A stretch of 64,000 nucleotides of DNA from an uncultured Chloroflexia bacterium (GCA_963748625.1 CAVVJT010000010.1:704001-768000); one strand, 5' to 3'; shown: positions 44,435 to 46,941, numbered from the stretch's first letter. Notes: generated by a model from the letters alone, not told the origin. Program-made: numbers and translations.

Positions 44435-46243
44435 TTGAGCGCGCCCCGCACCCACAAGCCAGGCAACCAGCAGGCAGCACGCGCCGGCGGCGTGGCAGCC
44501 GATGCGCGCGATCGCGACGCACCCGCCGGCGCGCGCTCCGAGGAGCCCGACAGCCGGCTCGAGTTGCTGGCGGCAGGCGGGAAGGGACCCGTGGACTCGA
44601 GGCTGCTGGGCAGCGTCCAGCGGGCAGCCGGCAATCAGGCGACGGCGCAGCTGGTCAAGGACCGCCTCCACAACGGGGTGTCCACGGTCCAACGGCGGGT
44701 CGTCCCGGGCGAGCAGGGCTGGCTCCGGGGCCTGCTCGCGGCGCGGGCCGGCGATCTCTCCACCCGCATCGGCGCCGACCCGGCCGCACGCCTCCTCGGG
44801 CTCGACATGGGTGACCGCGTGGACACGGTCGCCAGCCTGCGAGCCGACGTGGACGCCTTCGAGGTCGCGGTGGGTTCCGCGCCCGGCTTCACCGACCCGA
44901 ACGCGGCCCGGATCGTGAGCGCGCTCGAGGACTCGCAGACGACCGACGCGCTCGGCACGCGCCTCGTCACGCTGTTCCAGGCATCGGTGGACCCGCTGAT
45001 CGGCCTCGCCTGCCTGGTCACGATCGACCGGGACCGGATCCGGGCGGCCCTGCAGGGGGACGTGGCGAGGACCCAGGCCGCCCTCGCGCGCCTCACGGCG
45101 CGCCTCGCAGGCGTGACCATCCCGCCGGGCCTGACCTCGGCCAACACGTTCCTCACGACCCTGGGCGGCGAGCTCGCCGCACCCGCGACCGCCGGCGTGA
45201 CTGCATCCACAGCAGCGCGTGAGGCCCGCGTCGAGCACATCCTCACCCCGCCCGCAGTCGCCGCGGCACGCGCCGAGGCCGCCCGTGCGGGGCGCCCGCC
45301 GCCCGCCTTCACCGAGCCCGGCTACTACAGCGACCTCATCGAGGCGCTCCACCGGGTTGCGACCGACAGCTACCGGTCCGCTGACCAGGTGAACCGCCGC
45401 GCGCCCATGGACATGAGCTCGGGCGGCCGCGTCGAGCAGATCGCGCTGCAGGCCAAGCAGCGGGTGGACCGGCTGTTCGGCGTGTTCGGCTCCGCCGCCA
45501 CGCCCCGGATGCGGATGGGCGTCAACCTGTTCGACCAGTCGGCACGGGCCGGCGACCCGCGGGACATGGCGCGCTGGTTCGTCGAGGACTCGGGCGACGC
45601 GCGAATCCAGCATGTCGACGAGACCCATCATGCCTTCGGCGTGGACCGCGCGAACGTGATCCGCCAGGACGTGATCGACCACTACAGCAACACCGCGCCC
45701 GCCTCTGGGAACCCGCCTGCCGCGGGGCTGGACGCGCGCCTCGGGCTCGACGGCCCCGAGCGCCTGCGCAGGCTCACCCTGACCGACCGGATGTGGCCGG
45801 GGATGCAGCAGGCCGGCCGCGTCTACCTGACGCCACGTGAGGGCCGGACGCCTGCCCAGACGCGCGCCCTGTACTGGGACCTCTTCAAGACGTGCATGCA
45901 CGAGTACCTGCACACCGCGGCCCATCCCGCCTACACCCGCTGGTATGACCGGCTCCAGGATCCGCACCACAAGATCACGTACCAGGAGGGCTTCACCGAC
46001 TGGTTCACGCTGCGGACGTGGCGCTCGGTGTTCCCGGGCGAGGTTGCCTCGAACACGGCGTTCCGCCAGACCATCCAGGGCTCCGCTGACGTGGACCTGC
46101 CGGCTGCCACGGGCGACCCATCGCACTACCCCGAGATGGAGGAGGCACGACAGATGGAGGGCGAGATCGGGCTCGCGAACATGAAGGCCGCCTACTTCCG
46201 CGGCAACACCGCGGTCCTCGGCGGCGGAAGGCTGCCCCGCTGA
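44435..46243 (+). CDS. QRxAGN-motif protein with C-terminal HExxH metallopeptidase-like domain (putative effector)
   Basis: GAGGA RBS then TTG; VQRAAGNQATAQLV...VQRR; HEYLH (45899-45913) plus downstream QEGFT. Confidence 0.72.
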   Translation: MSAPRTHKPGNQQAARAGGVAADARDRDAPAGARSEEPDSRLELLAAGGKGPVDSRLLGSVQRAAGNQATAQLVKDRLHNGVSTVQRRVVPGEQGWLRGLLAARAGDLSTRIGADPAARLLGLDMGDRVDTVASLRADVDAFEVAVGSAPGFTDPNAARIVSALEDSQTTDALGTRLVTLFQASVDPLIGLACLVTIDRDRIRAALQGDVARTQAALARLTARLAGVTIPPGLTSANTFLTTLGGELAAPATAGVTASTAAREARVEHILTPPAVAAARAEAARAGRPPPAFTEPGYYSDLIEALHRVATDSYRSADQVNRRAPMDMSSGGRVEQIALQAKQRVDRLFGVFGSAATPRMRMGVNLFDQSARAGDPRDMARWFVEDSGDARIQHVDETHHAFGVDRANVIRQDVIDHYSNTAPASGNPPAAGLDARLGLDGPERLRRLTLTDRMWPGMQQAGRVYLTPREGRTPAQTRALYWDLFKTCMHEYLHTAAHPAYTRWYDRLQDPHHKITYQEGFTDWFTLRTWRSVFPGEVASNTAFRQTIQGSADVDLPAATGDPSHYPEMEEARQMEGEIGLANMKAAYFRGNTAVLGGGRLPR

Positions 46244-46725
46244 TGAGCGCGACGTCGGACCTGCGGGACGCCGTCACCGGGCGCGTCGATCGCTGGACCT
46301 GGACGCCCGGGCTGGACCCGGCCACCGTCGCCGACGCGCTCGGGACGTCGGTGTCCACGGGACCGATCCAGTACGCCGGCATCCTGCGCCAGGCAGGAAC
46401 GCTGCAGGTTCCGGGAGCTCCGTGGCCGGTGTGGGCGGTCTGGGACGACGACGGGGAGCTCCTCCTCATCGAGGTACTTGAGCCGCCGGCAGCGCCGAGA
46501 GCCGCCGAGGCCATCGCCGCATTCGGCGAGCCGGAGGCGAGGATCGGCCGAGCCCGCGGCCCGCACCCCAGCAATGAGCAGCTCGCCTACCCCTCGCGAG
46601 GCTTCACCCTGTTCGCGTGGCTCGAGGCTGCGCCCGCTGCCGTGTGGCTGTACCGCCCGATGGATTTCGACAACTACGTTGCCGAGCTCGGCGCGACGAT
46701 TCCCCCTACCCGCCAGCGACGTTGA
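46243..46725 (+). CDS. Hypothetical protein, candidate immunity/partner
   Basis: TGATG overlap with upstream stop; 160 aa, no signal peptide. Confidence 0.7.
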
Positions 46726-46740
46726 CGAGGAAGGACCGCC

Positions 46741-46941
46741 ATGGACCATGCGAACGCCCGCGTCGAGCGGGACCACCGGACCCCCGCCCAGACCCCAGCA
46801 TCACGGCCGCGGCCGGAGCGGAGTCCCGAGCAGGACATCCTCGAGCTCCAGCGGACAGCCGGCAATCGGGCCGTCGCGGAAGCGCTGGCGCCGGTCCAGC
46901 GCCACAGCCTCGATCCCGAGAATATGGAGCAGCAGCCGTAG
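46741..46941 (+). CDS. 66-aa stand-alone QRxAGN-motif protein
   Basis: [34 protein letters not shown]. Confidence 0.72.

Follow-up and report, generated by a model that had tools for sequence, protein, structure and literature searches.

How cargo is recognised by and loaded into phage-tail-like extracellular contractile injection systems (eCIS) is an open question, and the prediction of eCIS toxins relies on operon proximity and on the DUF4157 domain. In a preprint on AlgoCIS, the passages on cargo loading describe a disordered N-terminal domain upstream of DUF4157 that is needed for loading while DUF4157 itself is dispensable, an AAA+ protein that mediates loading, and loading sequences that are not conserved between systems (10.64898/2026.05.27.728243). 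Where the two surveys of eCIS toxins discuss this domain, Geller et al. 2021 treat DUF4157 as a core marker of eCIS and their toxins and leave its role open (PMC8213781), and Danov et al. 2024 detect no specific conserved signal sequence (PMC11297309); the toxins they describe include peptidase types, some with antitoxins (PMC8213781, PMC11297309). According to the effector sections of Casu et al. 2023, the contractile injection system (CIS) of Streptomyces coelicolor is cytoplasmic and mediates cell death, the release of envelope-targeting effectors is proposed, and three effectors share a highly similar N-terminus (PMC10066040). Here we describe three adjacent genes, A, B and C, in a 64,000-nucleotide stretch of DNA from an uncultured Chloroflexia bacterium (positions 704001-768000 of contig C10 in G000, a 4.6-Mb assembly of 10 contigs; referred to as the window). 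We consider that A-B-C probably constitutes an orphan cargo module of the phage-tail-like CIS or eCIS encoded in the same genome.

The features that a preliminary description had read from the window are all present: a protein of ~600 residues with an N-terminal QRxAGN motif, HEYLH and a later Glu in QEGFT (A), a 160-residue gene coupled to it through TGATG (B), and a 66-residue open reading frame (ORF) that repeats the motif behind its own ribosome-binding site (C; Table 1). The motif segment LGSVQRAAGNQATAQLV...TVQRR occupies residues 58-88 of A, HEYLH residues 489-493 and QEGFTD residues 517-522. The TTG start of A is preceded by GAGGA at 44421-44425, and an in-frame GTG at 44429 offers an alternative start. 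As that description also held, a signal-peptide-like hydrophobic stretch is absent from A, B and C (highest mean Kyte-Doolittle hydropathy 0.50, 0.74 and 0.23, respectively, in 15-residue segments starting within the first 70 residues; a dedicated signal-peptide predictor was not used), and neither a DUF4157 core nor tail genes accompany the cassette: the three proteins match no Pfam or NCBIfam family at E <= 1, and the injection locus lies outside the window.

A, B and C make up an operon that is conserved and translationally coupled. When one genome per species was scanned, 12 related loci were recovered, three from metagenome-assembled Chloroflexia genomes (70-75% identity) and nine from Actinomycetota, the latter including Dermatophilaceae, Ornithinimicrobium sp. 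F0845 and Microlunatus aurantiacus, and the order A-B-C is kept in all 12. The preliminary description had staked its reading on conserved linkage with the downstream gene, and B indeed lies directly downstream of A in every locus (tblastn, 34-69% identity), the A stop overlapping the B start in all 12 loci as in the window (ATGA in 11 loci, GTGA in one); in one Chloroflexia locus, L010, the B frame that follows is out of register with the overlapping ATG, maybe through an assembly indel. A C-type ORF comes after B in every one of the 12 loci by motif scan and in 11 of them by tblastn at E <= 0.01, and its start overlaps or abuts the B stop in seven. No other neighbouring gene family is common to more than four of the 12 loci. 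Homologous clusters number 21 for A (44-76% identity, none named), 52 for B and 85 for C (median length 63 residues), and cultured, non-pathogenic strains are represented both by whole cassettes (Microlunatus aurantiacus JCM 16548 and Ornithinimicrobium sp. F0845) and by C homologues (Cellulomonas flavigena DSM 20109 and Microlunatus phosphovorus NM-1).

A candidate for the delivery machine, which had been postulated to be encoded elsewhere, is present on the same contig, where a complete contractile injection locus occupies C10:532-551 kb, ~200 kb upstream of the cassette. The locus comprises a GerE/MalT-type regulator, a 288-residue eCIS_core protein (PF13699, formerly DUF4157), a 1035-residue protein of no known family beside it, a Pvc16_N protein with winged-helix and AAA domains, a sheath protein, two tube proteins, a CIS_tube-LysM protein, a VgrG-like spike, a PAAR protein, gp25, Baseplate_J and Tail_P2_I. 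Pvc16_N, winged-helix and AAA domains share one 1012-residue frame (C10:536714-539752, minus strand; 4714-7752 in locus L023), which is either a terminator-ATPase fusion or the product of a crude ORF call that joined two genes. A recognisable tail-fibre family was not found in this locus, a negative that does not discriminate between an extracellular and a cytoplasmic CIS. The only eCIS_core match in the genome (C10:532702-532935) lies in this locus, and the protein that contains it carries MLHLQRTAGNQGVLQML N-terminal to the domain, bearing out the association between motif and DUF4157 proteins that the preliminary description had named.

The segment common to these proteins (hereafter the tag) has the consensus LxxLQRxAGNxA(V/T), followed after 5-20 residues by VQR. 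A scan with a motif profile, as the preliminary description had proposed, was carried out on the window's genome and on related genomes with 24 profile positions derived from 21 tag segments (alignment A4). It matches eight ORFs in the window's genome, five of them far from the machine. Within the injection locus these are the eCIS_core protein and the adjacent 1035-residue protein, and at its edge a 729-residue repeat-rich protein beside the regulator; A, C, a protein with a DUF922 domain, a 600-residue protein and a 153-residue protein are orphans. The 729-residue protein (C10:518370-520559, minus strand, locus L022) has no Pfam match and contains numerous tandem repeats of ~30 residues (MPEEQITA.APRP.NQAQAP...). 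In the DUF922 case (C10:1375943-1378024, minus strand, locus L029), one frame joins a LacI-type regulator and a tag protein whose C-terminus matches DUF922 (PF06037, E 1.2e-10), and the latter is another candidate for orphan cargo. The 600-residue protein (C7:626100-627902, plus strand, locus L021) matches no Pfam family and is followed 16 bases later by a 159-residue ORF (627918-628397), so that the two may be a second effector-partner pair, here without a tag-only mini-protein. Six exact spellings of the tag motif, searched as exact strings only, are absent from the open-access full texts searched, and the motif is unmentioned in those passages of the eCIS papers that deal with DUF4157 or N-terminal regions; supplements might still list homologues. 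The text of Casu et al. 2023 contains neither the word 'motif' nor a passage on DUF4157 (PMC10066040).

Across genomes, both the cassette and the tag follow the injection machinery. Co-occurrence of an injection locus with homologues of A, on which the initial proposal likewise hinged, is complete: each of the 12 other genomes encoding A contains Pvc16_N, the tail-terminator marker, and eCIS_core, and all 13 A genomes thus have a CIS, against a Pvc16_N background of 18/201 genomes sampled from the window's own class and 26/201 sampled from one actinomycetotal class (9-13%). A-like proteins occur in two of the 201 own-class genomes, both Pvc16_N-positive. The tag is found in 16 of 18 Pvc16_N-positive versus 2 of 183 negative genomes in the own class and in 13 of 26 versus 3 of 175 in the actinomycetotal class, giving 29/44 marker-positive and 5/358 marker-negative genomes when both samples are pooled. 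Genera in which the marker is patchy show the same pattern (the sole positive of 12 genomes in genus g3 has marker and tag). A tag ORF lies less than 10 kb from the Pvc16_N gene in 15 of the 18 positive own-class genomes, and about 25 of 70 own-class tag matches fall within that distance, from which it follows that most tag ORFs are orphan or on other contigs.

The discordant genomes are few in the own class, with G104 and G165 carrying the marker without the tag and G065 (E 1.8e-6) and G204 (E 0.0065) the tag without the marker. G065 belongs to the window's genus, is 94% complete and has a clear tag match and no Pvc16_N match; either its CIS locus has been lost or is unassembled, or the tag can persist without a CIS. 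Among the 13 marker-positive, tag-negative genomes of the actinomycetotal sample, 12 have the lowest-scoring Pvc16_N matches of all and the thirteenth, G322, ranks 11th of 26, which suggests that the low-scoring genomes harbour a different CIS lineage.

These distributions speak to whether A and B could be an ordinary peptidase-inhibitor pair serving turnover of the cell's own wall or proteins, with no tie to a CIS and with QRxAGN as a lineage-specific low-complexity feature. The surroundings of the cassette would suit such a pair, as it sits among housekeeping genes (PlsY, an ATP-binding cassette (ABC) efflux system, SerRS) with no CIS gene adjacent to it in any of the loci, and five marker-negative genomes match the tag profile. 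This account is nonetheless highly improbable given the presence of a CIS in all 13 A genomes over a background of 9-13%, the concentration of the tag in marker-positive genomes (29/44 versus 5/358), the short distance (within 10 kb) between a tag ORF and the terminator gene in most positive genomes (15/18) and the fusion of A's catalytic domain to eCIS_core in 53 of 147 relatives.

The AlphaFold model of A (alignment A1; mean predicted local distance difference test score, pLDDT, 84.6; predicted template modelling score, pTM, 0.79) is divided into a disordered segment (residues 1-51), two low-confidence helices over the tag, helical repeats (~87-250) and a C-terminal domain (~320-602). In the alignment of A homologues the N-terminus varies in sequence and length, conservation is high over the last ~500 residues, with HEYxH and QEGxTD invariant, and QRxAGN...VQR is retained in most members; the GN core of the tag is present in 18 of 22 aligned homologues, the other four being three N-terminally truncated or frameshifted entries and one with a degenerate GG. 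Structural comparison with VIA-align relates the helical domain to helical-repeat proteins at Z 6-7.2, a range common for helical folds. The C-terminal domain (residues 258-602) is covered by 18 VIA-align rows, 15 of which are zinc peptidases; the top matches are the M1 peptidases 1z1w (Z 8.0, root-mean-square deviation 3.9 Å over 158 residues), 5zi5 (7.8) and 6oiu (7.6), and the list also includes further M1 aminopeptidases, M32 carboxypeptidases, ACE2 and thermolysin (6.3). VIA-align thus suggests a zincin-like fold of the kind that the preliminary description had made a requirement, at Z values that are common for this tool; Foldseek returned nothing at E <= 0.001 for the A model against viral models and the PDB. 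Comparison of A with PDB sequences gave no match, a profile of its C-terminal domain retrieved chance-level rows from the PDB (best E 0.082), and the ESM Atlas yielded unnamed clusters together with a weak Peptidase_M78 lead (18% of the members of one cluster).

In gluzincins, the third zinc ligand is a Glu that lies some 18-70 residues past HExxH in a subsequent helix. HEYLH of A lies within helix 473-495 of the model and E518, 24 residues further on, within the following helix 510-531, so that sequence and model place the two elements on consecutive helices, as in gluzincins. Among the 150 best of 406 domain relatives, H489, E490 and H493 are each present in 150/150 aligned sequences, E518 in 149/149, G519 in 148/149, W454 in 147/148 and Y565 in 146/149; the HExxH-plus-Glu pattern initially noted in A is hence invariant in its relatives. 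Taken together, the predicted fold, suggestive when considered alone, and the sequence signature, which adds weight to it, suggest that the C-terminal domain of A looks like a gluzincin zinc peptidase. A was also considered as a member of family M1 and this assignment was rejected, as there is no Pfam Peptidase_M1 match and the strand corresponding to GxMEN reads DRMWPG. A search of the same genome for an M1 peptidase that could serve as an alignment partner for A yielded two weak matches only, and this comparison was dropped.

A profile of this zincin domain, searched against 1.84 billion representative proteins at E <= 0.001, retrieves 406 representative proteins of 150-1800 residues, in which the domain is nearly always C-terminal. 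Pfam annotation of 147 of the 150 best relatives (three members of the A family were left out) identifies eCIS_core in 53, PG_binding_1 in 53, LysM in eight and T6SS_Tse3_N in three, with no Pfam model covering the zincin domain itself, and the tag profile matches 14 of the 150. The common layout is a leader, eCIS_core, a peptidoglycan-binding domain and the zincin domain; A appears as a variant in which the tag is kept, eCIS_core is absent and a helical domain takes the middle position. By its distribution, the zincin domain behaves as a payload would, and the PG_binding_1 and LysM domains of its relatives point to a cell-wall peptide as the probable substrate. A distant A paralogue in another genome (G191:C1:1858691-1860061, minus strand, locus L025; 27% identity over residues 247-602) has the tag and the zincin domain in a 711-codon frame; the B-like match after it is weak (E 0.005) and C is missing, which indicates that the zincin payload occurs with other partners in the same genus.

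B is modelled with high confidence (pLDDT 91.9, pTM 0.88) as two repeats of a helix and four strands each. Its nearest folds by VIA-align are the DUF4309 protein 4ygt_A (Z 8.5, 117 residues, 3.5 Å) and YfeY (2qzb_B, Z 7.7), rows from rank 6 down having Z <= 4.5; the Foldseek E-values for B are 0.022 and 0.027, and the ESM Atlas returned unnamed clusters only. The C-terminal tail is the sole low-confidence part of B modelled alone, and it is also conserved, with R157 and R159 invariant and an R-x-R or R-x-R-R end in 43 of 52 family members. The preliminary description had called for a complex prediction of the C-terminal domain of A with the 160-residue protein, and such a prediction (A residues 87-602 with B, three runs with controls, self-supplied unpaired alignments) gives an interface score ipSAE of 0.89 (0.90, 0.89 and 0.89 in the single runs) compared with 0.01 for the best control. 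Contacts agree by at least 98% among the runs, and the pLDDT of the partner is at least 91. The interface involves A residues 486, 489-490, 493-495, 497-498, 501, 505, 517-518, 522 and the strand 454-462 on one side and B residues 150 and 152-160 on the other, the tail of B pairing with A residues 457-461 and 381. In the model the active site is covered: B would clamp the peptidase cleft over H489, E490, H493 and E518, with its R-x-R-R-COOH tail running along the edge strand. The complex model supports, without showing, that B is an inhibitor that plugs the cleft of A with its tail. As B has no signal peptide, it is expected to act in the cytoplasm of the producer, where it would keep A inactive, either as an immunity factor or as a latency factor; the role of a latency factor fits B at least as well as that of an immunity factor.

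The predicted insertion of a basic tail beside the catalytic residues also raises the alternative that A is a tag-processing protease, cleaving tagged cargo at or after VQR, with B as a pseudo-substrate inhibitor whose tail mimics the product and C as a decoy or regulatory substrate. Every tag ends in the conserved Q-R, and in C the residues Q53, R54, H55, L57, P59 and E60 are invariant, as they would be around a specific cleavage site. Against it, A is encoded in just 2 of 18 marker-positive genomes of the own-class sample and so is no core maturation factor, in many relatives its catalytic domain stands C-terminal, behind eCIS_core and peptidoglycan-binding domains, as a payload would, A is itself tagged, and the tail of B (R-x-R) and the end of the tag (V-Q-R) have only the final Arg in common. 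We therefore regard a processing role for A as unlikely.

Apart from a disordered leader, C comprises the tag, a conserved tail with the sequence HxLxPE and little else; besides the six residues named above, L36, Q37, G41, N42, A44 and V45 are invariant. In P0192, a protein of 226 residues, homologues of B and C are fused in frame, the stop of B being replaced by Glu right before the Met of C; this entry is one cluster of two sequences on a 1.2-kb contig, where a sequencing error is possible. The fusion, as a sequence, hints that B and C act together. Our best guess for C is a trans-acting tag, which would take part in loading as an adaptor or a competitor, or would be a small co-cargo. We know of no counterpart of such a tag-only mini-protein among contractile injection systems.

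Short N-terminal markers (MIX, FIX and RIX) are common to unrelated, often orphan type VI effectors, and some marker-only proteins, the RIX tethers, carry other cargo. By extension, the tag segment might be a sequence-defined, transferable loading tag of one CIS lineage in Chloroflexota and Actinomycetota, with C as the free-standing tag acting in trans, a proposal that we put forward tentatively. The tag would then play the part that MIX, FIX and RIX play in type VI secretion, and C would link the loading ATPase or the DUF4157 adaptor to the A-B complex or to some other protein without a tag, or else would be a gatekeeper that competes for loading. If this holds, a simple profile would read out the whole cargo set of a genome, including the majority encoded far from the machine.

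The initial proposal of a toxin-immunity-like cassette with motif-routed cargo is thus supported by the operon, the zincin signature, the predicted block of A by B and the genomic link to a CIS, while toxicity, the routing into particles and the choice between immunity and latency for B are still inferred. In the orphan-cargo reading that we favour, A would be a tagged gluzincin-type effector (HEYxH, a 24-residue spacer, EG and a distal Tyr) whose tag region directs loading into the particle, by analogy with the AAA+-dependent N-terminal loading of AlgoCIS and with the adaptor contact between Sle2 and Sle1. A function of the tag at the loading step is suggested by its N-terminal position, its presence on the adaptor-like eCIS_core protein and on large proteins of the injection locus, and its association with the machine at the genome level. 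B would be stripped off at loading, and the delivered peptidase would act on a cell-wall peptide, either of another cell or of the producer itself in a regulated lysis of the kind proposed for Streptomyces.

The second of these targets defines an alternative in which the CIS is cytoplasmic and self-directed as in Streptomyces, and A is an envelope-degrading enzyme that is kept latent by B and freed in the producer at firing, leading to lysis or differentiation. It agrees with the cytoplasmic location of B, with the PG_binding_1 or LysM domains in relatives of A, with the share of Actinomycetota among the related loci (9/12), with the cytoplasmic, cell-death-mediating CIS described in the Streptomyces sections cited above (PMC10066040) and with the lack of a recognisable tail-fibre family in the own locus. 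That lack is weak evidence, however, since tail fibres are diverse and easily missed, and the present data do not indicate where in the cell the particle resides; the alternative differs from the cargo-module reading in the target alone and leaves the molecular roles of A and B as they are. We consider it rather doubtful.

Several observations weigh against the assignment of A-B-C to the CIS as a cargo module. A is not encoded within ~10 genes of the eCIS operon, and DUF4157 is absent from the protein and its neighbours, so that A lacks the positional marks by which published surveys recognise eCIS toxins. The tag matches in the own genome are circular, as the profile was built partly from that genome. 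Tag matches also occur in five marker-negative genomes (G065, G204, G260, G279 and G346), 15 marker-positive genomes are without the tag, and the co-occurrence counts ignore shared ancestry, most positives of the first sample coming from one family. With the 72 ORFs of the own CIS locus as tblastn queries, the 12 related loci and their 6-kb flanks give no match at E <= 1e-5. The best fold match of A, at Z 8.0, is middling and typical of models without a clear relative, and the Foldseek search against the PDB was null. The ipSAE mark applied to the A-B complex is reached by 116 of 157 solved complexes and by 2 of 215 mismatched pairs, a calibration that holds roughly given the unpaired alignments. 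B, finally, being without a signal peptide, cannot shield the cell wall from incoming A, for which reason a latency factor fits better than classical immunity.

A profile of about 24 positions thus separates machine-bearing from machine-less genomes in two phyla. If the motif is a loading tag, orphan cargo would become discoverable from sequence alone, the recognition step would be testable by point mutation, and the short tag would be a candidate handle for loading foreign proteins. The cassette also brings together three unannotated families, namely a zincin payload domain of wide occurrence (406 representative clusters, frequently with peptidoglycan-binding domains), a predicted tail-inserting inhibitor and a tag-only mini-protein.

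Table 1 Features of the A-B-C cassette and its neighbours, in window coordinates.
Feature	Position	Strand	Basis or remark
Gene A, tag-bearing cargo/effector candidate, 602 residues	44435-46243	+	stop-free frame; start TTG at 44435
A residues 1-51, disordered hydrophilic N-terminus	44435-44587	+	pLDDT <50; no hydrophobic stretch
A residues 58-87, tag LGSVQRAAGNQATAQLV...TVQR	44606-44695	+	motif profile A4, 38.5 bits, E 9.8e-9 per genome
A residues 87-250, helical-repeat (ARM/HEAT-like) domain	44693-45184	+	helices pLDDT >87
A residues 320-602, gluzincin-like metallopeptidase domain without Pfam model	45392-46240	+	VIA-align
HEYLH (H489, E490, H493), predicted zinc-binding/catalytic motif	45899-45913	+	on helix 473-495
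E518 in QEGFTD, predicted third zinc ligand	45986-45988	+	on helix 510-531
Gene B, 160-residue partner predicted to occlude the active site of A	46243-46725	+	ATG overlaps TGA of A as TGATG
B residues 150-160, basic C-terminal tail (...PPTRQRR), predicted in the cleft of A	46690-46722	+	complex model
Ribosome-binding site GAGGAAGGA for gene C	46727-46735	+	sequence reading
Gene C, 66-residue tag-only mini-protein	46741-46941	+	begins 15 bases after B
C residues 33-54, tag, then conserved tail HxLxPE	46837-46902	+	motif profile, 47.3 bits, E 2.1e-11 per genome
FtsX permease and HlyD-like protein	38500-41798	-	
tRNA-Ser (anticodon TGA)	42839-42926	-	1.5 kb upstream of cassette
Membrane protein, 346 residues	43255-44295	-	no family
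ABC ATPase	47039-47794	+	after C

The window has a high G+C content of about 0.72. The membrane protein between the tRNA-Ser gene and the cassette matches, like A, B and C, no Pfam or NCBIfam family at E <= 1, and it is not conserved beside A in the 12 related loci; the stretch with the tRNA and this gene could mark an insertion site, the G+C content being without a clear break there. The ABC ATPase that follows C matches the FtsX permease and HlyD-like protein on the other side of the cassette. In locus L010 (8502-11646), an ATPase and a permease lie directly after C in one orientation, and comparison with the window suggests a local rearrangement in the window's genome.

Among the described systems, AlgoCIS is one that the cassette recalls. 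A resembles its cargo proteins Cgo1 and Cgo2 in having a disordered N-terminus and a C-terminal effector-type domain, the latter variable in AlgoCIS, and the CIS locus of the window's genome likewise encodes an AAA protein. Cgo1 and Cgo2, however, carry DUF4157 and are encoded in the cluster, whereas A is without DUF4157 and lies ~200 kb away; and while the AlgoCIS preprint finds loading sequences to be unconserved, a short profile-detectable motif recurs here across two phyla. The DUF4157 toxins surveyed by Geller et al. and Danov et al., whose supplementary tables may already list A homologues, combine a hydrophilic N-terminus with a C-terminal enzymatic domain as A does, and the catalytic domain of A is itself found behind DUF4157 in many of its relatives (53/147). 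Of the features that define such toxins, A has the disordered N-terminus (pLDDT <50 for residues 1-51) and an eCIS encoded in its genome. The tagged 288-residue eCIS_core protein and the tagged 1035-residue domain-less protein of the own locus resemble the Sle1-Sle2 pair of the Streptomyces lividans particle; Sle1 differs from A, a zincin encoded far from the locus, in its kinship with tape-measure proteins and in the position of its gene next to that of the sheath.

For the enzyme, the nearest structural counterparts are the M1 gluzincins (aminopeptidase N, tricorn-interacting factor F3 and leukotriene A4 (LTA4) hydrolase), with which A shares the HExxH helix, the Glu on the next helix and a distal Tyr. 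In M1 peptidases the Glu ligand is part of an (N/Q)EGF-like turn, the spacer between HExxH and Glu is 18 residues, and GxMEN is the exopeptidase motif. A differs in its spacer of 24 residues and in having no M1 N- and C-terminal domains, and with DRMWPG in place of GxMEN, anchoring of the kind used by exopeptidases is not expected. For the inhibitor, the precedents are AprI of the Pseudomonas AprA-AprI pair and Inh of Serratia, small co-encoded proteins that insert a terminal tail into the cleft of a zinc protease. These inhibitors are periplasmic beta-barrels that insert the N-terminus, whereas B would be a cytoplasmic protein with a two-repeat alpha/beta fold whose C-terminus is predicted to insert. 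The likeness of the tag to MIX, FIX and RIX is limited in that these belong to another machine and are other motifs, the present tag being known from sequence. In sum, a CIS effector with its cognate inhibitor is a known kind of system, and what is new, besides the three unannotated families with the tag-only mini-protein among them, is the orphan, DUF4157-less arrangement together with a profile-detectable motif that tracks one CIS lineage across two phyla.

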